Below are positions 2,909 through 40,620 of a stretch of 64,000 nucleotides of DNA, one piece after another (position 1 is the first letter of the stretch; each line of letters begins with the position of its first letter). Origin of the DNA: Dehalococcoidia bacterium (GTDB lineage Bacteria; Chloroflexota; Dehalococcoidia; Lucifugimonadales; JAGWBF01). The translations under genes and the position numbers were made by a program. The stretch is taken from positions 1,129,179 to 1,193,178 of the forward strand of contig CBDBNM010000002.1 of the NCBI GenBank assembly GCA_965207935.1, given 5' to 3'. The notes beneath the pieces were generated by a model that searched no databases, was not told where the DNA came from, and was given only the letters and a program-made list of their open reading frames with translations.

Positions 2909-3307
2909 CCGGTTCGCCCTTCTATTGCCCCCAGGACGAACCAATAAGGGAATCATTCTTCACGCGTGGTCGTGTCGCAGGCTGGGTTTCCTGGATTGCG
3001 GCCTCCGCCGCAATGACGGCAGGGGCATTTGTCACATGCAGACGTTTGCTGGCAGTTCGTCCCCTACCCCATCCCCCGGGGTAGACGCGTCTTTTGTCAT
3101 TGACGCGTATTCGTCTTTGCGGCGAAGGCCGCAATCCAGGACGGAGCGTTGCCGGCTACAGGATGGCTCCCGTCAAGGGGGATTGGCTCGGCTCGCCCTT
3201 TGATTGCTCCCAGGACGAACCAATAAGGGAATCATTCTTCACGCGTGGTCGTGTCGCAGGCTGGGTTTCCTGGATTGCGGCCTCCGCCGCAATGACGGCA
3301 GGGGCAC
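2909..3307. repeat. Mosaic palindromic repeat cluster R2
   Basis: An internal direct repeat of about 117 nt occurs at 2911-3027 and 3189-3306. Hairpins ATTGCGGC-N4-GCCGCAAT start at 2995 and 3274, with a variant at 3116. Segment 2971-3190 is colinear with 1661-1880. Confidence 0.85.
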
Positions 3308-19669: not shown

Positions 19670-20090
19670 CCCCGCGACTCCCGCTTCCCTATCGGTATGC
19701 CCTTCGATTTCCCTCTTCGAGAGCCTCAGGACAGGCTCAGGACGAACCGACAAGGGCCGCAATCCAGGAAACCCAGGCCAGGGGCAGGCCTCCCCCCACT
19801 ATCGTCACTCCCGCGGAAGCGGGAGTCTACGAACCCTCGGCTGTACGTTCGCCCTGAGCCTGTCCAGAGGCTCTCGAAGGGAGAACGGACAGGATGCCCT
19901 GACGGGAGCAACCCTGTAGCTGGCATTGCTCCGTTCTGGATTGCGGCCTCCGCCGCAATGACGAATATCCTCTCGATAGTGAAAAGCGTGTGTGACACAA
20001 TGCCAGAGAAGGCCGTCCATGACCAAAGGCCCACCCCGTCATTGCGGCGAAGGCCGCAATCCAGGAAACCCAGGCCAGGGGCAGGCGCCC
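19670..20090. repeat. Mosaic palindromic repeat cluster R3
   Basis: GAGCCT/AGGCTC module in both orientations (about 19720-19745 and 19853-19875). TCCCGC-ggaa-GCGGGA at about 19811. ATTGCGGC-N4-GCCGCAAT at 19940-19959 and inverted at 20041-20060. Confidence 0.85.
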
Positions 20091-29994: not shown

Positions 29995-30105
29995 TGTCCC
30001 CTACCGTCACTCCTGCGACAGCGGGAATCCGGGGGATAAACGGTGCCCCCTCGCCCCTGGAGGGAGAGGGTTGGGGTGAGGGGGCAGGCCCCTCCGTCAT
30101 TCCGG
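29995..30105. repeat. Left remnant of a mosaic repeat unit interrupted by the IS (cluster R4a)
   Basis: Matches the last about 110 nt of the 328-bp unit at 32570-32683, including CCCCCTCGCCCC-N15-GGGGTGAGGGGG. It stops within the ATTGCGGC arm. Confidence 0.85.
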
Positions 30106-30207
30106 TGTCAATGCTAAGTTAGATTTGACCCTTTTCCGCTAAGTTAGAACTGACCCACCTTGTCGTTAAGTCGCCTCCTTTCTGGCAAGCAAGAGTGCCT
30201 GTTGGAT

Positions 30208-31011
30208 TTAGACGTCGCCGGAGCTAGCGGCTTCAGGCGATGTCGATAGCAGTTGATGGGAGGCGAAGAGTCCGGCCTGCCTCTTGCCTTTAAGCCGGTA
30301 GCTCTCGCCTCGGATGTTGAGGACGTGGCTGTGGTGCAGCAGCCGGTCCAGGATGGCCGAGGCGATGACGGTATCGCCCAGAAGCTCACCCCACTCGGCG
30401 AAGCCCTTGTTGGAGGTGAGGATGATGCTGCCCCGCTCATAGCGAGCCGACACCAGGGTGAAGAAGGCGGTGGAGGCGTCCCGGTCGTAAGGCCAGATGC
30501 CGAACTCGTCCACGATGAGTAGCTTGGGCGACAGGTAGACCCGCATGCGCCGTTGGAGGTTGTTCTCCACCCTGGCCTTCCTCAGGTCCTCCATCAGGTC
30601 GTAGGCTCGGACGAAGTAGGCCCCCTGGCTCTTCTCGATGGCCTTGAGCGCTAGGGCCACCGCCAGATGGGTCTTGCCCACACCTGGCGGTCCCAGGAGC
30701 AGCAGGTTGGTGGCTTCAGCGACGAAGGACAGGCCGGCCAGTTCCCGCACCTGTCGCTCGTCGATGGAGGGCTGGAACGAGAAGTCGAACTGCTCCAAGG
30801 TCCGGTGGAAGGGGAGGTGAGCCAGCTTCGTCCTGGTGGACATGTACCGCTCCTTCCGGGCGGCCACTTCCACGCCGAGTAGCTCTGCCAGCATCTCGGG
30901 GTAGGTCAGTTTCTTGGTGGCCGCAGCGTCCAAGGAGTTGTCCAGGGCTTCGACGGCCTGCTTGAGGCCCAGCGTCTCCAGGTGCTGGCGAGCCTGTTCC
31001 AGCGCGATCAT
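30208..31011 (-). CDS. istB: IS21-family helper ATPase IstB
   Basis: 267 aa. Walker A LLLLGPPGVGKTHLA and Walker B LLIVDEFG. The start overlaps the istA stop. Confidence 0.95.
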   Translation of the reverse strand: MIALEQARQHLETLGLKQAVEALDNSLDAAATKKLTYPEMLAELLGVEVAARKERYMSTRTKLAHLPFHRTLEQFDFSFQPSIDERQVRELAGLSFVAEATNLLLLGPPGVGKTHLAVALALKAIEKSQGAYFVRAYDLMEDLRKARVENNLQRRMRVYLSPKLLIVDEFGIWPYDRDASTAFFTLVSARYERGSIILTSNKGFAEWGELLGDTVIASAILDRLLHHSHVLNIRGESYRLKGKRQAGLFASHQLLSTSPEAASSGDV

Positions 31012-32243
31012 CGCCCACCTCCCACCGCTGCCAACTCGTACACCTCCAGGGAGCGGCGCTCCACCTGGCCCACAGGGATCTGCACCGCCACGGCTTCCTT
31101 ACGAGGACGATCATCGCCGCCGGGCAGTCCGTCCCACTGGCCCGGCAGTGTGAGGCGCTGACCGGTCCGCTGGGCTTGGGGATGCACCGCCAGCCGCACG
31201 TCGCCCGACCAGACCTCCACCGTACCGGCCCGCACACCCACCTGGACCGTCGAACCCGCCCAGCTCCAGGGCACGCCGTAGCGAGACCTCTCCCAGTGGA
31301 CGTAGCCGTCCCTGGCCACCTTCCGCTCCTCCCGCATGTAGGGCGCAAGGCCCGAACGCGGCGGCAGGCTGCCCAGGTGGGCGAGCTCCTCAGCCAGCAT
31401 CTCTCGGGGGACCCGGTGCGTCGTCCCATGGACTCGCCGATTGGCCACCGCATCGCACCACTCCAGGGCCTGGCGGTTCATGTCTGCGTCGTCGGTGAAG
31501 CGGACACCGGGCCACAGGTTGCCCCGGACGTACTTCACGCCGCTCTCCACCTTGCCCTTCGTCTGCGCTCGGTAGGGTCGGCACAGACGGAGGTCGAAGC
31601 CCATTCGCAGTGAGAAGTCCAGCATCCGGCTGTTCCACTCCGGCCTGCCCTCCCTGTCACGCCCCAGGACCACCACCTTGGCGTTGTCGTACAGGCAGCG
31701 GCGGGGAACACCACCGAAGTACTCGAAGGCGTTCAGATGGCACCTGATGAAGGTCGCCACGTCGGCGCGCCGGACGAACTCCACGTAGATGGTCCGAGAC
31801 CAGCTCAGCACCATCACGAAGGCCCAGACCCGGTGCTTGCGCCCGTCCTCTCCGACATAGGCGAAGCTGCCCCAGTCCACCTGTGCCTGCTCGCCTGGCG
31901 CCGTCTCGAACCGCACCGTCGCACGGGGCTGACGCGGCCGACGCCGAGGCCGCACGTAGTTGGTCAGCGTCGGATAGCTGCCGTCGTAGCCCAACTCCCG
32001 GATCTCCCGCAGCAGCACCACGCAGTTGTCCACTCCCGCCGACAGCCGACCATCTATGTGACCCTTGTATGGGTCCAGCTTCGACCCCTGCTTCTCTCGC
32101 CGCTTGGCCTTGGGCACCTCGTCGGAGCGCACGTACTTGCGCACGGTGTTCCGGGAAATCCCCAACTCCCTCGATATCCCTCGGATCGAGCTTCCATCGC
32201 CCTTCAACTCGTATAACTCTCTCACTAACCCACCTCCTATCAT
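31008..32243 (-). CDS. istA: IS21-family transposase IstA
   Basis: 411 aa. N-terminal HTH (SIRGISRELGISRNTVRKYV) and a DDE core (QVDWG...VMVLSWSR...LYDNAKVVV). Confidence 0.95.
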   Translation of the reverse strand: MIGGGLVRELYELKGDGSSIRGISRELGISRNTVRKYVRSDEVPKAKRREKQGSKLDPYKGHIDGRLSAGVDNCVVLLREIRELGYDGSYPTLTNYVRPRRRPRQPRATVRFETAPGEQAQVDWGSFAYVGEDGRKHRVWAFVMVLSWSRTIYVEFVRRADVATFIRCHLNAFEYFGGVPRRCLYDNAKVVVLGRDREGRPEWNSRMLDFSLRMGFDLRLCRPYRAQTKGKVESGVKYVRGNLWPGVRFTDDADMNRQALEWCDAVANRRVHGTTHRVPREMLAEELAHLGSLPPRSGLAPYMREERKVARDGYVHWERSRYGVPWSWAGSTVQVGVRAGTVEVWSGDVRLAVHPQAQRTGQRLTLPGQWDGLPGGDDRPRKEAVAVQIPVGQVERRSLEVYELAAVGGGR

Positions 32244-32351
32244 TTGACTTGCTGCACCTCCTAATCGGTTTCCCGACGAAGATGCGTCCGCTATCGGGGT
32301 GGGTCAATTCCAAATTAGCGCTACTGGGTCAGTTTAGAGTTAGCACTAACA

Positions 32352-33235
32352 CCGGCGGAGGCCGCAACCCAGGAAACCCCGGGACTGGGCCAGGCTGGCT
32401 ATGATGAAAGGCGTGCCCCCCGGTTTGTTCTGAGGGAAATCGAAGGAGAACCGACAGGAGCGCCGGTGAGTTGCGAGGGAAAGGATCGGCCCCTTGACAA
32501 AGGCCATCCTGTATCCCGACAACGCTCCGTCCTGGATTGCGGCCTACGCCGCAATGACGAAAAGCGGGGGTGCCCCAAATACCCCCACTCCCGCGAAAGC
32601 GGGAATCCGGGGGATAAGCGGTGCCCCCTCGCCCCTGGAGGGAGAGGGTTGGGGTGAGGGGGCAGGCCCCTCCGTCATTGCGGCGGAGGCCGCAACCCAG
32701 GAAACCCCGGGACTGGGCCAGGCTGGCTATGATGAAAGGCGTGCCCCCCGGTTTGTTCTGAGGGAAATCGAAGGAGAACCGACAGGAGCGCCGGTGAGTT
32801 GCGAGGGAAAGGATCGGCCCCTTGACAAAGGCCATCCTGTATCCCGACAACGCTCCGTCCTGGATTGCGGCCTACGCCGCAATGACGAAAAGCGGGGGTG
32901 CCCCAAATACCCCCACTCCCGCGAAAGCGGGAATCCGGGGGATAAGCGGTGCCCCCTCGCCCCTGGAGGGAGAGGGTTGGGGTGAGGAGGACAGGCCCCT
33001 CCGTCATTGCGGCGGAGGCCGCAATCCAGGAAACCCCGGGACCGGGCCAGGCTGGCTATGATGAAAGGCGTGCCCCCCGGTTCGTCCTGAGGGAAATCGA
33101 AGGAGAACCGGGGGCGTAAAGTAAGCCACGGTAGGTTCCCGCGAAAGCGGGAACGACGGAAGAGGGAGTGGGGAAGAGCGACTCTGGGCTGTGTCACCCT
33201 CCCCTTAATCCCCTCCCATCAAGGGAGGGGGATAT
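32352..33235. repeat. Tandem array of a 328-bp composite repeat unit (cluster R4b) plus degenerate tail
   Basis: Units occupy 32356-32683 and 32684-33012, nearly identical, with a partial third copy from 33013 to about 33110. The tail carries TTCCCGCGAAAGCGGGAA (about 33136) and CCCCTCCC-N5-GGGAGGGG (about 33208-33228). Confidence 0.9.
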
Positions 33236-33283: not shown

Positions 33284-34084
33284 CTAGCGGGTGTAGACTG
33301 GCAGGTAGCCCGGCCGGTAGTCGCGGTCTTCCCATGAATGGTCGTCGGGGTCCCAGACGTAGGGCAGGTGGACCATCTCCCCCGGCGTTGTCATGGCCTC
33401 CATCGCCCCGAAAGCATCCTTCAGGATGGCGCGCTGAAGCTCTGGCTCGTTGGGCTTACCCGTTTGATGGCCCAGGGGGAAGTTGACGAACACCGAGCGG
33501 GGAGGCTTCACCGCCTGGGTGATGTCCAGGGCTGACGTCATGGACAGGGTGGGTATCCCCGCTTCTTCCACACCCCTGGCGATCAGCCCCACGGACTGAT
33601 GGCACACCGGTCAGGCAGGCACCAGGAACAGCACACCCACCTGGCGGCTGAGCATCTGCTCCACCACCATGGGGACGACCTCGTTACGCACCCGGCGGGC
33701 TGAGTAGATGCCCCCCATCAGAGAATAGGCCGGGTCCGCCAGCTCCCCGATGGTGCCCTCGGATTCCAACTCCCGCAGCCTCTCCAAGGGGAACACGCAG
33801 TTGGGATCGACGCCGGCGTCGTCGGTCAGATAGCCGAAGTGGGACACCCGCAGCCGGGCGTAGTCCACATCCTTCGGTATCTCGTGGCAGGAAGTGTCGT
33901 CCTTGTAGTGGAAAGGAGCTTGGTCCTCCATGTGGATGCCGCCCGTGGACAGGAGGGCTACCCTGCTCTCGGCTAGGGGGGAACGTAGAGGCGTCCATGG
34001 AGCATCTTCGTTGACCACCCATCGGTAGGGCAGGTAGCTGGCATACATTTCCCGGGTGCGGGGGATGTAGTCGATGGGTGACAT
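33284..34084 (-). CDS. GrdB/PrdB-family reductase-like protein, proposed selenoprotein (in-frame TGA at 33611-33613 read as Sec)
   Basis: Track ORFs 33611..34084 and 33284..33607 are in the same frame, separated by TGA plus CCG. The joined 266-aa product reads ...FLVPA-U-PVCHQSVGLIARGVEEAGIPT... The family call comes from recalled patterns (YIPRT..., VFPLERLRELE, PPRSVFVNFPLGHQTGKP). Confidence 0.65.
33579..33603 (-). promoter_or_regulatory. Candidate bacterial SECIS stem-loop
   Basis: The mRNA 8-32 nt after the UGA folds as GCCAUCAGUC-CGUGG-GGCUGAUCGC. That is 10 stem positions: 8 Watson-Crick pairs, 1 G.U and 1 C.C mismatch. The apical loop contains GU. Confidence 0.4.
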
Positions 34085-34100: not shown

Positions 34101-35795
34101 CTACTGCTGGGGCTGCTTCATCACATCGCCCAAGCGGGCAGGCCGGGGCATCTCGTCGGGATCGACGGGCACCTCTATAATGCTGGGGACGCTTGCGTTC
34201 ATCGCTTCCCTGAAGGCGTCTCCTATCTGGTCAGCCTCTTCCACCCTGATGCCGATGGCGCCGAATGAGCGGGCGTACTGCTCGAAGTCGGGGCTGCCCA
34301 CATCGGCCCCAACGTAGCGTTCGTTGAATGCGTACTTCTGGTAGGCCTTTTCTGACCCCCAGCAGCCGTTGTTCATGATAATCGTGATCACGTTCAGGCC
34401 GTAGCGCACTGCCGTCTCCATCTCCTGGGCGTTGAACAGGAACCCGCCGTCCCCGTTCATGTTGACTACCGTGCGGTTCGGCAGAGCGAACTTGGCGCCC
34501 AGGGCCTCGGGGAATCCGAAGCCAAGTCCTCCCAGGTCCAGGGAGATGAGCAGGCTGCGAGGGTTGTCGAACACCAGCCTGTCCTGCCCGAAGGCGGGCG
34601 TCAGCCCGGCATCCAGGGAGATGATAGCGTCGGTGGGGATGACCTTGCGCAGCTCATGGTAGGCGCGCTGGGGTTTGAGGGGCATGGTGTTCAATGAGCC
34701 TTCGGAGTCCAGGCGCTCCCAGCGACGCCGGGAAAGCTCCTTGACCTCCTCCAGCCATTCGCCCCGGATAGGCGCTTCCGCTGCCCTGAGAGACCGGAGG
34801 AGCTGGGTGGCCACGCCCTTAGCATCGCCCTGGATGCCCACGGCGACAGGGTAGTTCCTGCCGATCTCGTTGGCATCGATGTCCACCTGGACTATTCGGG
34901 TTTCCGGCTGGATGTAGCGGTTGTCGTAGAAGGTGGTGCTGTGGGACAGACGGGTGCCCAGCGCCAGCAGCACATCGGCCTTGCGCACCGCCTCGGCGGC
35001 TTCGGGCGCACCCAAGCGTCCTATGTGCCCCAGGAACTGCGGGTGGTTGTTGGGAACAGCATCTGCCCGTCCATAAGATGTCACCAGGGCGGCGCCGGTG
35101 ATCTCCGCCAGTTCCACAGCTTCCTGGGAGGCCAAGCTCCAGTCCACCCCGCCGCCGGCCATGATTACGGGCCGTTGCCCGGAACGGAGCACCTGGACAG
35201 CCCTCTCCACAAGATCTTCGTCCCCCTGAACCCGGCTCTGGCCGATGCGGTAGCTCCCAGGATCGAGGGCCGTGGCCTGCACCTCCGTGCCCACCATTAT
35301 GTCTCTGGGAAGGTCCACCAGCACAGGCCCCATCTTCCCGGAAGTGGCTACCCGAAAGGCGTGCTGCAGAAGCTCAGGGATACGCTCGGGCACGGTCACC
35401 TGGAAGGCCGCCTTCGTGATGGGACGGAACAGGGACACCTGGTCGAACTCCTGGGTGGAGTCGCGGTGCTGGTGCTCCCTGGATGGCGATGGGGCCAGGA
35501 TAACCATCGGAGAATGGGCAACGTAGGCAGCCGCCACCCCATAGGTCAGGTTGATGACCCCGGGGCCGTTGGTCACCAGGCAGACCGAGGGCCGGCCGGT
35601 AACCCGGGCATAGCCGTCAGCCATAAGAGCCGCTGCTTGTTCATGGCGGACACCGACGAACTGGATGTCCGTCCGGTCGTACATGGCATCCAAAATATCC
35701 AGAAAGGCGGCGCCCACAATGCCGAACACATGGCGTACGCCTTCCTGCCTGAGGGCTTCCACGACGGCGTGGCCGACGCTGGTTGTTGGAGACAT
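34101..35795 (-). CDS. Thiamine diphosphate-dependent enzyme (acetolactate synthase / sulfoacetaldehyde acetyltransferase-like)
   Basis: 564 aa. N-terminal PYR domain (GVRHEQAAALMADGYARVTGRP) and C-terminal ThDP motif (GDGGFLFNAQEMETAVRYGLNV). Ends 16 nt before the GrdB-like start. Confidence 0.88.
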   Translation of the reverse strand: MSPTTSVGHAVVEALRQEGVRHVFGIVGAAFLDILDAMYDRTDIQFVGVRHEQAAALMADGYARVTGRPSVCLVTNGPGVINLTYGVAAAYVAHSPMVILAPSPSREHQHRDSTQEFDQVSLFRPITKAAFQVTVPERIPELLQHAFRVATSGKMGPVLVDLPRDIMVGTEVQATALDPGSYRIGQSRVQGDEDLVERAVQVLRSGQRPVIMAGGGVDWSLASQEAVELAEITGAALVTSYGRADAVPNNHPQFLGHIGRLGAPEAAEAVRKADVLLALGTRLSHSTTFYDNRYIQPETRIVQVDIDANEIGRNYPVAVGIQGDAKGVATQLLRSLRAAEAPIRGEWLEEVKELSRRRWERLDSEGSLNTMPLKPQRAYHELRKVIPTDAIISLDAGLTPAFGQDRLVFDNPRSLLISLDLGGLGFGFPEALGAKFALPNRTVVNMNGDGGFLFNAQEMETAVRYGLNVITIIMNNGCWGSEKAYQKYAFNERYVGADVGSPDFEQYARSFGAIGIRVEEADQIGDAFREAMNASVPSIIEVPVDPDEMPRPARLGDVMKQPQQ

Positions 35796-35956: not shown

Positions 35957-35985
35957 GAGACACGCTGTACTAATTGCGTTATAAT
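35957..35985 (+). promoter_or_regulatory. Candidate promoter of the amino-acid ABC transporter operon
   Basis: GAGACA (35957-35962), a 17-nt spacer and TATAAT (35980-35985). Confidence 0.3.
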
Positions 35986-36066
35986 GTTCACTTGTTCGGC
36001 GGACTGCCGCGGAAGCGCCGGTCTCCGAGCAGACACTTTCACTTCAGGAAAGGAACGGATCGGGAG

Positions 36067-37134
36067 ATGCTGAAGTACAAGGTATACATCATGGTTGCGG
36101 TTCTCGTAGCTCTGGCGGCAACCCTCGCGGCGTGCGGTGGGGATGGCGATGGCGAAGAGAGCGGCAGACTACAGGCTGTCCAGGACCGCGGCGAGGTCAT
36201 CTGTGCCAGCAGAAACGACGTCCCGGGGTATGGCTCCCTGGACGCGGCGGGGAACAACGTAGGCTTTGACATCGATCTGTGCAGGGCGCTGGCGGCCGCT
36301 GTACTGGGTGATCCGAATGCCATACAGATCAGGCTGATCACAGCTGCCGAGCGTGGGCCGACCATCCAGTCGGGTGAGGTTGACATGCTCGTGCGCACAG
36401 TTACCTGGACAACCTCCCGGGATTCCCAGTGGGGCAACTATGCCCAGACCATGTTCTACGATGGCCAAGGGTTCATGGTACGGGAGGACGAAGGCTTGGG
36501 CAGCGCCCTGGACCTTAAGGATGCCACCGTTTGTGTCACCCAGGGAACGACTACTGAGCTTAACCTGCAGGACTTCTCGAACCAGAACGACCTGAACCTA
36601 ACCGTTCTGACATTCGAGGACACCGACGCGGTGGTCGCGGCTTACGACGCCGGGCAGTGCAACTCCTTCACCAACGACCGGTCCCAGCTTGCAGCTCTGC
36701 GCACAGCTCTGGCCAACCCCGGAGACCATGTGATCCTGCCTGAGACGATCTCTGAAGAGCCTCTGGGTCCCGTGGTCCCCCACGGCGACGACCAGTGGTT
36801 CGACATCGTCAAGACCGTGATGGGCATGCTCATCTACGCTGAGGCGTATGGGGTCACAATGGATAGTGTGCCGAGCTCCGCGACCGGCGACACCAAGGTT
36901 GACCGTCTATTCGGCTTGGGAGGCTCCTTCGGCCAGGACAGCCTGGGTCTCAAGGAAACTGTAGCCCAGGATGTAATCAGGGCCGTCGGCAACTACGGCG
37001 AGATATATGCCCGGAACCTTGGCCCCGACGGGATCAACCTTCCGCGCGATGGCGGGCGCAACGCCTTGTGGGCAGATGCCCCGTGCAGCGACTGCCCCAA
37101 GGGCGGCCAGATCTACGCAGCTCCTCTAAGGTAG
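36067..37134 (+). CDS. Amino-acid ABC transporter substrate-binding lipoprotein (AapJ/BztA-like)
   Basis: Track ORF from 35974. The ATG at 36067 gives MLKYKVYIMVAVLVALAATLAACGG, a lipobox signal. The mature part resembles general L-amino-acid binding proteins. Confidence 0.88.
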   Translation: MLKYKVYIMVAVLVALAATLAACGGDGDGEESGRLQAVQDRGEVICASRNDVPGYGSLDAAGNNVGFDIDLCRALAAAVLGDPNAIQIRLITAAERGPTIQSGEVDMLVRTVTWTTSRDSQWGNYAQTMFYDGQGFMVREDEGLGSALDLKDATVCVTQGTTTELNLQDFSNQNDLNLTVLTFEDTDAVVAAYDAGQCNSFTNDRSQLAALRTALANPGDHVILPETISEEPLGPVVPHGDDQWFDIVKTVMGMLIYAEAYGVTMDSVPSSATGDTKVDRLFGLGGSFGQDSLGLKETVAQDVIRAVGNYGEIYARNLGPDGINLPRDGGRNALWADAPCSDCPKGGQIYAAPLR

Positions 37135-37163
37135 CTGCAGACCTGTACTCTGTGTGAGATACG

Positions 37164-37197
37164 GAGGATACCCCCGGCTCCGGCCGGGGGTATCCTC
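37164..37197 (+). other. Intercistronic 15-bp perfect stem-loop
   Basis: GAGGATACCCCCGGC-tccg-GCCGGGGGTATCCTC, 30 nt after the binding-protein stop. No T-tract follows. Confidence 0.5.
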
Positions 37198-37390
37198 TAA
37201 CGTGCACCTACCGAGGGCCCCAGCCCAACAGCGGGAATCAAACTGGTGCTGAGGCTCCCCGGAGCTTAGTGCACATCCCGTAGTCAACGACCTATGCCCG
37301 CTTCGGGTAGAAGCAAACCATTAAGTCACCTCGACAAACTCGGCGCTGTTAGACTAGAATCATGCGCAAAACCGCTAGGTAGTCGAAGGT

Positions 37391-38590
37391 GTGACGCTCC
37401 CCAACCTTACCTACAAAGGCGTGCCCGTTTGGAGGCACGCTCAAGTCCTTCAGTGGACGGCGCAGATCGTGTCCGGGATATTGGTAGTTGTCCTGGTCAC
37501 TTGGTTCTTTGCGAATATCGCCAGCGCCATCTCAAACCGAAACATCCCCTTCGGATTTGAGTTTCTTTCCAGGGAGTACCAGACCCCCATAGGTTGGCAT
37601 CTGCTCCCATACGAGTCCTCAGACACCTTCCTTTACGCCTTTCTCGTCGCCGTTACTAACACCCTGTTTGTCTCCTTGGTCGGCGTGGTGCTGGCAACCC
37701 TCCTGGGCACATTCATAGGGATTGCTCGCCTGTCCGGCAACTGGATCCTTTCCAAGGTTGCCCTCGTTTACATCGAGTTCTTCCGGAATGTTCCTTTGCT
37801 GGTGCAGCTGTTCTTCTGGTTCTTTATAGTGCTGGCGCTGCCCAGCGAGCGGGATGGCTATGTCCTCGCAGACCGCCTGTACCTGAACAATGCAGGGCTA
37901 TCCATTCCGTGGCTTGCGGTGAGCAGCGTTGGTTCCGCCCTGATCTGGCTTGGACTGGTCGTTGCCGCCATCGTCGCCGGCATACTGGTCCATCGCTGGT
38001 TGGTTGCCAGGGAAGTTCGAACAGGTTCGGCGCCGGACCCCCTGTTGATGGGACTTGCAACCGTTTTGGTGATCGGCGCCGTCGGCTGGGTCATTATCGC
38101 CTTTTCGTCAGGAACGGCTCCCTTTACCGTTTCGCTGCCTTCGCCCCAGGGGGACTTTGGTCGCATCTCAGACGGGTTCACCTTGTCGGGAGGGCTGATG
38201 GCGCTGATGATCGGGCTGGTCATGTACACAGCCTCGTTCATCGCCGAGATAGTGAGAGCCGGAATCCAGTCGGTAAGCCGGGGACAAATCGAGGCGGCCC
38301 GCGCTTTGGGGCTCTCAACTGCGAGGACCTTGCGACAGGTAACCCTCCCTCAGGCCATGAAGGTGATTATTCCTCCGCTGATCAGCCAGTTCCTCAACTT
38401 GACCAAGAACAGCAGCTTGGCAGGCGCCATCGGGTTTTCCGACCTTACTAACGTGGCAAAGACCATGACCCAGACGGCGCCTGCCGTATCCATATTCCTG
38501 TTGATCATGGCGGCGTATCTCGCCATGAGCCTGACCTATTCCCTCATCGGCAATCTGTACAACAAGCGGATAAACGTTGGGAGAAGGTAG
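37391..38590 (+). CDS. Amino-acid ABC transporter permease (AapQ/BztB-like)
   Basis: 399 aa, polytopic. EAA-type loop (VSRGQIEAARALGLS). Confidence 0.9.
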   Translation: MTLPNLTYKGVPVWRHAQVLQWTAQIVSGILVVVLVTWFFANIASAISNRNIPFGFEFLSREYQTPIGWHLLPYESSDTFLYAFLVAVTNTLFVSLVGVVLATLLGTFIGIARLSGNWILSKVALVYIEFFRNVPLLVQLFFWFFIVLALPSERDGYVLADRLYLNNAGLSIPWLAVSSVGSALIWLGLVVAAIVAGILVHRWLVAREVRTGSAPDPLLMGLATVLVIGAVGWVIIAFSSGTAPFTVSLPSPQGDFGRISDGFTLSGGLMALMIGLVMYTASFIAEIVRAGIQSVSRGQIEAARALGLSTARTLRQVTLPQAMKVIIPPLISQFLNLTKNSSLAGAIGFSDLTNVAKTMTQTAPAVSIFLLIMAAYLAMSLTYSLIGNLYNKRINVGRR

Positions 38591-38593
38591 GAC

Positions 38594-39844
38594 TTGGCTT
38601 CTGAATTAAGACCCGCCGGCAACGTACCCCTTCCGCCTCCGCGCCTGGAAAGAGGCGCCGTCGGATGGGTACATGCCAACCTGTTTGCGACAAAGTTCAG
38701 CGGCGCCCTTACAGTGGTGTCCGCGTTGGTGATCGGTGCAGCGGCAATATTCGGCATAAACTGGATGCTGTTCAACGCCGACTGGACTGTCATCGGAGTC
38801 CTGGGCGGTCAGATGATAATAGGCCAGTACAACACCGAGGCCTCCTGTCCCGGCCAGAACTGTTTCTGGAGGCCCCAGGCGTCGTTGCTGCTGGTGACGG
38901 CCCTCCTGGGCATGATGTGGGCAGTTGCGGGAGGCGGGCTTACAAAACGTATCGCAATAGGCGTCGCCGTGGCCCTGGCTGCCTTTGCCTTGCTCCCCTA
39001 CAGCTTCGAACGGATGGGCATGGATGTCCGCCTGCTGCTTGCAGCGAATATCCCCGCGCTGGGGATCGGATGGGCTATCGCCCGGTACACACCGTTGGGG
39101 ACTTCGCCCAGGATTGCGCTGTCGGCCGTCGTCGTGTTCGTTTTGACCCTGCTCCTGCTCCGTGGAATCCCAGGCATCCCGGGCCTGCAACCGGTGTCGG
39201 TGCTCAACTGGGGAGGGTTGACGCTGAACCTGGTGCTGGCTGTGGGGGGCATCGCCTTCAGCTTTCCCATCGGCATTGCCCTCGCCCTTGGCCGACGTTC
39301 CCGGCTGCCTGTGGTCAAGCTGCTGTGCGTGGTGTTCATCGAAGTGTTTCGGGGCGTGCCCCTCATTACCCTGCTGTTCATGTCCCAGGTGCTGGTGCCG
39401 CTGGCATTTCCTGAGAACTTCCCCCAGAACTCCCTGTTCCGAGCGGCCATTGTCATAACCTTATTCAGTTCTGCATACATGGCGGAGAACATCCGAGGCG
39501 GGCTCCAGGCCCTGCACCCCGGCCAGGCTGAGGCAGCCCGGGCGCTGGGCCTTCCAAGCTGGCAGACCACCCTCTTCATATCTTTGCCCCAAGCCATCCG
39601 CAATGTGATTCCAGCCATCGTGGGGCAGTTCATCGCTTTATTCAAAGACACTACCCTGGTGTACATCATCGGTATGCTCGACATAGTTGAGATCAGCCGA
39701 GCCTTCACCCAATCAAACCCACAGTACCTTGCCGACACTAAGGAGTTGTTCCTCTTCCTGGGCTTGGTTTTCTGGGTGTTCACCTACGGCATGTCATATG
39801 TCAGCAGGCGGGTGGAAGAGAACATGGGAGTGGGACGCCGGTAG
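38594..39844 (+). CDS. Amino-acid ABC transporter permease (AapM/BztC-like)
   Basis: 416 aa, polytopic. EAA-type loop (HPGQAEAARALGLP). Confidence 0.9.
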   Translation: MASELRPAGNVPLPPPRLERGAVGWVHANLFATKFSGALTVVSALVIGAAAIFGINWMLFNADWTVIGVLGGQMIIGQYNTEASCPGQNCFWRPQASLLLVTALLGMMWAVAGGGLTKRIAIGVAVALAAFALLPYSFERMGMDVRLLLAANIPALGIGWAIARYTPLGTSPRIALSAVVVFVLTLLLLRGIPGIPGLQPVSVLNWGGLTLNLVLAVGGIAFSFPIGIALALGRRSRLPVVKLLCVVFIEVFRGVPLITLLFMSQVLVPLAFPENFPQNSLFRAAIVITLFSSAYMAENIRGGLQALHPGQAEAARALGLPSWQTTLFISLPQAIRNVIPAIVGQFIALFKDTTLVYIIGMLDIVEISRAFTQSNPQYLADTKELFLFLGLVFWVFTYGMSYVSRRVEENMGVGRR

Positions 39845-39861
39845 CTTAGACAGGAGGGACC

Positions 39862-40620
39862 ATGGAAGCGCAAGAAATGAATAACGGCGCAGAAGACATC
39901 ATCATCTGCCGGGATGTGCACAAGTGGTTTGGCAGCTTCCATGCCCTTCGCGGAATCACTACTACCATCGGCAGGGCCCAGGTCGTGGTGGTGTTCGGGC
40001 CGTCGGGGTCCGGCAAGTCCACCTTCATCCGCACCATCAACCGGCTGGAGGAGCACCAGCGGGGCCAGATCATCGTGGACGGCATCGAGCTCACCAACGA
40101 CGTTCGCAACATCGATGCCATTAGGCGGGATGTGGGAATGGTGTTCCAGTCCTTCAACCTGTTCCCCCATCTGACCGTGATGGACAACATCACCCTGGCG
40201 CCGATAAAGGTGCGCAAGATGCCCAGGGACGAAGCACGGCAGGTCGCGTTGGACCTGCTGAACCGGGTGGGAATACCCGACCAGTCGGACAAGTACCCGG
40301 CCCAGCTGTCGGGAGGTCAACAGCAGCGGGTGGCCATAGCCCGGGCGCTGGCGATGCAGCCCAACATTATGCTGTTCGACGAGCCCACCTCGGCCCTCGA
40401 CCCGGAGATGATCAAAGAGGTGCTGGAGGTGATGAAGGAGCTGGCAGGCTCTGGGATGACCATGGTGGTGGTGTCCCACGAGATGGGGTTCGCCCGTGAG
40501 GTGGCGGACCGCATGATGATGTTCGACCAGGGATCGATTGTAGAGGATGGGTCCCCCCAGCAGATATTCGAGGACCCACAGAACGATCGGACCAAGCTGT
40601 TCCTGTCCCAGATACTCTAG
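39862..40620 (+). CDS. Amino-acid ABC transporter ATP-binding protein (AapP/GlnQ-like)
   Basis: 252 aa. Walker [10 protein letters not shown], signature LSGGQQQRV and Walker [13 protein letters not shown]. Confidence 0.95.

Follow-up and report, generated by a model that had tools for sequence, protein, structure and literature searches.

Within a 64-kb stretch of DNA from a Dehalococcoidia bacterium (61% GC; hereafter the window, whose positions serve as coordinates throughout), the minus-strand reading frame from 34084 to 33284 is interrupted at one point only, by a TGA codon at 33613..33611 that is preceded by 157 codons and followed by 108 more. After the TGA, the same frame continues with a single CCG codon and then with a GTG (33607..33605) that opens an open reading frame (ORF) of 107 amino acids (aa) at 33284..33607, so that two ORFs in one frame are divided by nothing but TGA and CCG, exactly as an earlier sequence-only reading of this DNA had described. 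That reading regarded the pair as a single gene of the GrdB/PrdB family whose TGA encodes selenocysteine (Sec), and foresaw that automated annotation would split it; public gene calls do so, giving a 157-aa product and a second one of 85-110 aa. Upon read-through, the junction becomes ...VLFLVPA-U-PVCHQSVGLIARGVEEAGIPT..., with U at position 158, a cysteine at position 161, and U-P-V-C-H-Q-S as the resulting motif. The nature of this gene, the decoding of its TGA, and its relationship to the selenoenzyme PrdB are the subject of this work.

Pairs of open stretches joined by TGA in one frame are plentiful in a window of this GC content (well over 100), and a bare junction is thus not beyond chance. 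The present pair is set apart from such chance pairs by a coding-like G+C content at third codon positions (GC3; 0.82 on either side of the TGA), by homology to the family models PF07355 and TIGR04483, and by comparative conservation. The other TGA-joined pairs of high GC3 were considered as candidates for a second selenoprotein gene in the window, and were rejected as being antisense shadows or adjacent genes that share a frame.

The comparative evidence stems from a search of 5.8 billion clustered proteins, which returned 718 matches (the best 120 of which were inspected), and from a scan in which one genome represented each GTDB species; a relative was detected in 207 genomes, and the best 80 were taken. 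The latter are metagenome-assembled genomes (MAGs) of Dehalococcoidia and of Binatia/Binataceae (some labelled delta proteobacterium), as well as one Conexibacteraceae MAG, and provided 82 fetched loci (among them L003-L032 from Dehalococcoidia and L033-L082 from Binatia) from 80 distinct genomes; junction counts were made on 81 sequences, and open-frame counts on 83. Orthologues are 59-90% identical to the window protein (86-90% in the syntenic relatives with complete chromosomes OY760073.1, OZ220675.1 and OZ244824.1), and in the best 80 genomes the tblastn matches cover essentially the whole query, running across the stop. In all 82 fetched loci, as in the window, the codon preceding P-[VI]-C-H-Q-S is TGA, and never TAA, TAG or a sense codon.

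A homology split by a single in-frame stop, in a gene that gene callers treat as truncated, could reflect a nonsense pseudogene, in which a Cys-encoding gene was hit by a change of TGC or TGT to TGA and its downstream part is now decaying. This is extremely improbable, since 80 species-level genomes of two phyla share this TGA, and these are not assembly copies of one sequence, as the 48-nucleotide (nt) junction alignment contains 75 distinct rows. In addition, the frame after the TGA is open for 108-141 codons in 83 of 83 sequences, with neither frameshifts nor extra stops, whereas the other two frames downstream contain a mean of 4.2 and 1.7 stops per 100 codons. The downstream part is also the better conserved of the two (mean identity to the window of 72%, vs 62.5% before the TGA), and its changes lie mainly at third positions, mismatches to the window within the first 60 downstream codons occurring at 10, 6 and 51% for codon positions 1, 2 and 3, respectively. 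Relatives carrying TGC or TGT together with other inactivating lesions, which the sequence-only reading had named as the mark of a simple pseudogene, were looked for among the 80 loci, all of which instead retain the TGA and an intact, constrained frame.

The same data bear on the possibility that translation stops at the TGA and re-initiates just downstream, yielding an N-terminal domain of 157 aa and a C-terminal domain of approximately 107 aa that assemble later. In support of this scheme, a GTG lies two codons past the TGA in the window and in 40 of 81 orthologues, a second small ORF is annotated, and 112 of the best 120 protein matches are 152-162 aa in length, ending at the TGA codon with 58-90% identity. 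However, the downstream ORF lacks a start signal of its own, as the sequence-only reading had noted: no Shine-Dalgarno (SD)-like motif was found between -18 and +6 in any of the 81 sequences, and the 'start' codon of the remaining 41 orthologues is GTC, GTA, GTT or ATA/ATT. The first possible start after the TGA varies between codons 2, 7, 13, 16, 22 and 24, and Pro159, which lies 5' of every one of these, is invariant in the orthologues. Furthermore, homologues with Cys in place of Sec are single chains with CPxC across the junction, and the hairpin constraint described below tracks the TGA, such that re-initiation retains a very small probability. Taken as a whole, the alignments rule out a pseudogene and leave two separately translated genes very unlikely.

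What amino acid the TGA encodes is suggested by homologues that read through the same column with a sense codon. Among the best protein matches, eight are longer than the truncated forms, with Cys at the TGA column in five (P0001, P0011, P0044, P0053 and P0057, whose junction reads [V/M]-C-P-V-C-H-Q-S), Thr in two, and Trp in one. An exhaustive HMMER search using P0001, the closest full-length Cys homologue, as query collected 1638 clusters at 50% identity (E ≤ 1e-3); of the top 150 representatives, 70 have Cys at this column, mostly within CPxC, 35 end exactly there, six are C-terminal fragments that start just after it, four have Trp, and a minority have Ser, Gly or Thr. The expectation that Cys would align with residue 158 is therefore borne out in five of the eight closest full-length homologues and in 70 of the 150 top representatives, a Sec/Cys pairing that is what would be expected of a redox-active selenoprotein family. 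As a separate observation, P0005 (L088:6001-7044) and P0007 (L091:1501-2400) have Thr at the Sec/Cys site, encoded by genuine ACA/ACU codons, and keep the downstream Cys (T-P-V-C-H-Q); to judge from their sequences, these proteins, as well as some distant Ser/Gly representatives, must work without the first redox residue.

The Trp entries (P0083 and the four representatives), along with the lack of Sec machinery in the window, could be taken to indicate that UGA is read as a standard amino acid, be it Trp, Cys or Gly, through near-cognate or suppressor decoding or through a reassigned code. These entries are most simply explained as TGA translated under another code table. TGA is the ordinary stop of 17 of 58 ORFs in the window, which indicates that the code is standard and that TGA is not reassigned; the aligned residue of the homologues, within a CPxC redox motif, is Cys, the classic partner of Sec; a conserved hairpin is located at SECIS (selenocysteine insertion sequence) distance; and tRNA-Sec is encoded beside the orthologue in three genomes. 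Insertion of a standard amino acid is thus highly improbable.

Across the 81 orthologous junctions, RNAalifold predicts a single hairpin of 10 base pairs (bp) that starts 7-10 nt after the UGA. Its core is an 8-bp stem formed by +13..+20 and +24..+31 (counted from the U of UGA), closed by a three-base loop, GUN, and extended by the outer pairs +10/+34 and +11/+33; in the window these correspond to a stem of 33600..33593 with 33589..33582, a loop GUG at 33592..33590, and outer pairs 33603/33579 and 33602/33580. In the textbook bacterial SECIS, the Escherichia coli fdhF element, the stem starts some 10 nt beyond the UGA and G-U are the first bases of the loop, and the position of the hairpin agrees with this arrangement. 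Standard pairs are found in 98.1% of 750 cells, as compared to 12-39% after displacement of the 3' partners by 1-3 columns; in terms of covariation, U-A is replaced by C-G at one pair (11 sequences), and the changes at two pairs are wobble changes only. The codons of the stem are frozen (Gln CAG in 81/81, Ser UCC in 80/81, Gly GGA/GGG in 81/81 and never GGC/GGU, Leu CUG in 80/81), whereas the loop Val codon uses all four third bases, and the same stem amino acids use 2-6 codons elsewhere in the gene. In seven Cys/Thr homologues with the same PVCHQSVGL-type peptide only 5-9 of the 10 pairs are kept, and codons such as AGC/UCG for Ser, CAA for Gln, GGC for Gly and CUC for Leu are used at the stem, which indicates that the RNA constraint goes with the UGA and not with the peptide. 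A frozen stem, a free loop, and relaxation in the Cys/Thr forms together are the signature of a putative bacterial SECIS, and the search for such an element after the UGA, proposed along with the candidate, thus yielded a conserved SECIS-like hairpin. It is of note that the Dehalococcoidia and Binatia orthologues, which belong to two phyla and share 60-65% protein identity, have a near-identical SECIS core (CAUCAGUCC-GUN-GGACUGAU); this likeness could mean either that gene and SECIS were transferred horizontally as a unit or that constraint is very strong.

Some observations weigh against this interpretation. Single-sequence folding of the junction is no better than that of shuffled sequences (z of +0.67 for 86 nt and -1.13 for 39 nt); such folding is uninformative in GC-rich coding sequence, and the case for a SECIS is therefore a purely comparative one. 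The hairpin overlaps a fully conserved peptide, with two-sided compensatory change in just one of 10 pairs, and the Cys/Thr control is small (n=7), its closest Cys form (L085) keeping nine of 10 pairs. In addition, neither selA, selB, selD nor tRNA-Sec was detected in the 64-kb window by ARAGORN, Rfam, or tblastn with E. coli SelA, SelB and SelD; ARAGORN and the Rfam scan at gathering thresholds gave no tRNA gene and no Rfam match in the window, the hairpin included. A sole tblastn match to these Sel proteins in the window and all loci, in L026, was rejected, being translation initiation factor IF-2 encoded beside truB.

Sec decoding in this organism is accordingly something that we infer. Three Binatia loci (L050, L062 and L073) contain a tRNA-Sec gene (anticodon UCA) at a distance of 7-9 kb upstream of the orthologue, called both by ARAGORN and by Rfam model RF01852 with 71-72 bits, vs a gathering score of 47; neither selA nor selB flanks this tRNA gene. 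Dehalococcoidia MAGs with 46-49 selenoprotein genes are recorded in BSepDB (PMC13326102).

These data indicate that the locus very probably contains one gene, encoding a predicted 266-residue selenoprotein of the GrdB/PrdB superfamily that is closest to PrdB and whose UGA encodes Sec. The candidate selenoprotein with its U-x-x-C motif is thus supported by a conserved UGA, a constrained downstream frame, Cys homologues, and a hairpin. In the proposed mechanism, UGA codon 158 would be decoded by Sec-tRNA(Sec) delivered by SelB, which would be recruited by the mRNA hairpin that lies within the coding sequence (CDS) 7-10 nt past the UGA, as in the bacterial SECIS arrangement. Sec158 and Cys161, located in U-P-V-C between the end of a beta-strand and the start of an alpha-helix, would form the redox-active centre; the selenolate would attack the substrate, Cys161 would resolve the adduct to generate a selenenylsulfide, and this bond would subsequently be re-reduced. 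The features of the locus, together with the tRNA-Sec genes of the Binatia loci, are compiled in Table 1.

Table 1. Positions and supporting evidence for the putative selenoprotein gene, its junction elements and associated genes (window coordinates unless a locus is named).
Feature	Position	Strand	Basis
PrdB-like selenoprotein CDS (predicted), complete	33284..34084	-	266 residues plus TAG stop (33286..33284), ATG at 34084..34082; translation, family models, orthologues matching residues 1-266 in 80 genomes
In-frame UGA, codon 158, putative U of U-P-V-C	33611..33613	-	TGA in all orthologues; Cys in full-length homologues
TGC, Cys161, predicted resolving cysteine of UxxC	33602..33604	-	Cys in 81/81 orthologues; CPxC commonest motif among Cys-type homologues
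SECIS-like hairpin, +10..+34 from U of UGA	33579..33603	-	RNAalifold consensus, pairing count, frozen synonymous sites, Cys/Thr contrast
N-terminal part, residues 1-157	33611..34084	-	Called by gene callers as a 157-aa GRDB-domain protein; 112/120 best database matches stop here
C-terminal part, residues 159-266	33284..33610	-	Reached by read-through of UGA only; open in 83/83 sequences, no SD, no conserved start
Thiamine diphosphate (ThDP)-dependent enzyme, 564 aa, acetolactate synthase / sulfoacetaldehyde acetyltransferase-like	34101..35795	-	Pfam TPP_enzyme_N/M/C and NCBIfam matches, all below cutoffs
tRNA-Sec	L050 3083-3178; L062 1249-1344; L073 1333-1428	-	ARAGORN and RF01852

The family to which the protein belongs was examined by scoring the 266-residue product, with Cys put in place of the stop, against family models. 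PrdB is the best-scoring named family: TIGR04483 aligns with E 1.2e-49, residues 27-244 being collinear with positions 17-234 of the 238-position model, although with 168.9 bits it falls short of the equivalog cutoff (300). The Pfam model PF07355 (GRDB) scores 31.9 bits vs a cutoff of 22 over residues 34-129, and homologues carry precomputed PF07355 assignments, while the models for GrdB, GrdF and GrdH (TIGR01917, NF040794 and NF040795) reach 45-50 bits vs cutoffs of 602-800 and match through their C-terminal half only. The suggestion that the protein is closer to the short PrdB than to the approximately 430-aa GrdB is in keeping with the collinear TIGR04483 alignment and the half-length match to GrdB-type models. 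Sec158 corresponds approximately to position 148 of TIGR04483, near U151 of C. difficile PrdB (PMC11229817), a placement made by hidden Markov model (HMM) coordinates and not by residue-level alignment.

The protein could be a genuine B subunit of D-proline reductase, or of a similar amino-acid reductase that depends on a pyruvoyl group, with the gene for its PrdA-type partner lying at some other place in the genome. In favour of this, no named family scores better than PrdB, the alignment is collinear from end to end, Sec158 lies near U151 by HMM coordinates, and an amino-acid ABC (ATP-binding cassette) transporter is divergently adjacent. This possibility is nevertheless unlikely, given the score of 168.9 vs 300, the absence of PrdA/GrdE, PrdC and proline racemase among recurrent neighbours up to 7 kb away in the 81 loci, and the varied neighbours of the gene; in Clostridia, prdA and prdB share an operon, and the complex is required for maturation (PMC11229817). 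Thus, of the claim of GrdB/PrdB-family membership, the family assignment stands, since PF07355 is passed and the protein is PrdB-like, but identity with D-proline reductase is unlikely, since the equivalog cutoff is missed and no PrdA is found nearby. The sub-threshold score and the lack of a nearby PrdA argue for a protein that would be PrdB-like in its UxxC chemistry and not a demonstrated member of D-proline reductase. Lacking a PrdA-type pyruvoyl subunit in its vicinity, it is most likely a stand-alone or differently partnered reductase.

An AlphaFold2 model of P0001, built from 29 aligned sequences (predicted local distance difference test, pLDDT, 80; predicted template modelling score, pTM, 0.81), places the Cys equivalent to Sec158 between a beta-strand (148-152) and the N-terminus of a helix (156-171), which is the usual setting of a CxxC/UxxC redox pair. 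A sequence search of the PDB gave no match at E ≤ 1, and the best hit of a Foldseek fold search had E 0.015 and a template modelling (TM) score of ~0.3; the structure thus gave no functional lead.

The genomic neighbourhood was surveyed by clustering, for 81 loci, the ORFs up to 7 kb away from the gene and annotating each recurrent family. No PrdA/GrdE, PrdC or proline racemase is present among these recurrent families, nor among gene calls to 10 kb in L001 and L002, whose public calls with Pfam labels agree with the survey. Among the recurrent neighbours is a luciferase-like F420/FMN oxidoreductase (LLM), in 31 loci, others being a DHA2-type transporter of the major facilitator superfamily (MFS), a short-chain dehydrogenase/reductase (SDR), a glutathione S-transferase (GST)-like protein, a SpoU methylase and assorted hydrolases. 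In the window, the gene of the ThDP enzyme is located 16 nt upstream of the selenoprotein gene and is probably co-transcribed with it; its best models are sulfoacetaldehyde acetyltransferase and acetolactate synthase, both below cutoff. This enzyme is encoded in 12 loci, but only in the window and the four relatives closest to it does its gene directly precede the selenoprotein gene, for which reason a conserved functional partnership was rejected. The four genes of an amino-acid ABC transporter (35974-40620, plus strand) diverge from the intergenic region of the ThDP gene, and the same layout is seen in L003-L006.

In Binatia, a Tpx-type thiol peroxidase is encoded directly downstream of the selenoprotein gene in 21 loci. 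After tpx in these genomes (e.g., L050 11477-16600, L062 and L073) lies a cobalamin-salvage cluster controlled by a cobalamin riboswitch, which includes CobS, CobU, a CobT-like phosphoribosyltransferase, CobD, CbiZ, a BluB-like nitroreductase, an aminotransferase and a TonB-dependent receptor; these genes were taken as lineage synteny, and not as a functional link.

Downstream of the selenoprotein gene the window also contains mobile and repeated DNA. Approximately 930 bp from the stop codon lies an IS21-family insertion sequence (IS) element (30102-32355) with istB (30208-31011) and istA (31008-32243), both on the minus strand; transposase and IstB helper score above their NCBIfam cutoffs, and imperfect inverted repeats of 58 nt are present at 30102-30159 and 32298-32355. 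The syntenic loci L003-L006 are without this insert of approximately 3.3 kb, and in these the selenoprotein gene is followed directly by a haloacid dehalogenase (HAD)-type hydrolase gene. Between the gene and the IS21 element, a 328-bp tandem repeat occupies 32353-33110 (2.3 copies, 98% identical), ORFs at 32329-33197 being spurious translations of it, and a partial copy at 30002-30105 lies on the far side of the element; copies on both sides suggest that the IS inserted into or beside the repeat array. The window further contains 11 copies (0 expected) of a 30-nt element, TCCTGGATTGCGGCCTmCGCCGCAATGACG, located at 1680-1832, 2989-3297, 19934-20066 and 32530-33031, mostly as inverted pairs spaced 103-143 nt apart. 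It looks like a dispersed intergenic repeat family resembling miniature inverted-repeat transposable elements (MITEs) or repetitive extragenic palindromes (REPs), of which the 328-bp units are part.

The consequences of these observations lie chiefly in annotation, since existing calls divide this gene into a truncated protein of 157 aa and a small hypothetical ORF, both in the window and in at least 80 genomes at species level, where a single selenoprotein of 266 aa would be the appropriate entry. A clean, comparatively validated bacterial SECIS could also help to train selenoprotein predictors for Chloroflexota and Binatia. The gene is most simply regarded as one more member (or a clade) of a known selenoprotein family, which has been recorded in ocean metagenomes and is also present in recent reviews; none of these findings would come as a surprise to specialists in selenoproteins. 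Primary data were used here to describe the Dehalococcoidia/Binatia clade, its SECIS and the genes around it. A further proposal is that this clade, and by extension much of the ocean 'PrdB' family, are PrdA-independent, stand-alone Sec/Cys (UPxC) reductases and not proline reductases, a generalization for which we consider the chances to be even. The gene neighbours differ between clades (F420/FMN-type LLM oxidoreductases, efflux MFS, GST, SDR, ThDP enzyme, Tpx), and the fold is without a solved relative. If the generalization holds, the 'PrdB' label is a misnomer, and an abundant environmental selenoprotein family is left without a known function. For an abundant environmental 'PrdB' that appears to lack PrdA and has no solved structure, the real substrate is a testable question.

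Comparison with characterized systems begins with the PrdB proteins of Clostridia (C. sticklandii, C. difficile; approximately 241 aa, Sec151), which the present protein resembles in size class, in its collinear full-length alignment, in a U-x-x-C motif at the equivalent position, and in the predicted use of an in-frame UGA for Sec followed by a SECIS inside the coding region. In C. difficile, U151 is essential and the U151C variant is inactive; D-proline is bound to the pyruvoyl group, and its alpha carbon is the site that Sec151 attacks. The underlying chemistry, selenolate attack and resolution by a nearby Cys, is likely shared (PMC11229817). Clostridial prdA and prdB are found in one operon, and the complex is needed for maturation (PMC11229817), whereas no prdA, prdC, prdH or prdF was detected near the gene in the 81 loci; the score is 169 vs 300, and the hosts are Dehalococcoidia and Binatia MAGs instead of Stickland-fermenting Clostridia. 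The low equivalog score, the lack of nearby prd genes, and the different hosts together suggest that the substrate is probably not D-proline on a PrdA pyruvoyl group.

The GrdB, GrdF and GrdH proteins (approximately 430 aa, UxxCxxC) share with it the PF07355 domain and a Sec-based reductive-cleavage motif, but the present protein has 266 residues, aligns at approximately 222-425 of the 431-435 positions of their models only, has UPVCHQS without a third Cys, and is encoded with no grdA or grdE nearby in the 81 loci. A parallel in habitat surveys is the 'proline reductase PrdB' family (pfam07355) of the Sargasso Sea and Global Ocean Sampling (GOS) data, which is alike in Pfam family, in UxxC, and in the occurrence of both Sec and Cys forms in uncultured bacteria, the likeness being one of family and motif and not of direct sequence comparison. 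In these marine data, known since 2005, PrdB with UxxC ranked third in abundance among the selenoprotein families of the Sargasso Sea, with 42 Sec genes (PMC1088965), and in GOS it was among the most abundant selenoproteins, with 235 Sec vs 110 Cys forms (PMC2398784). In both papers the PrdB function is a matter of naming only, and PrdA goes unmentioned (PMC1088965, PMC2398784).

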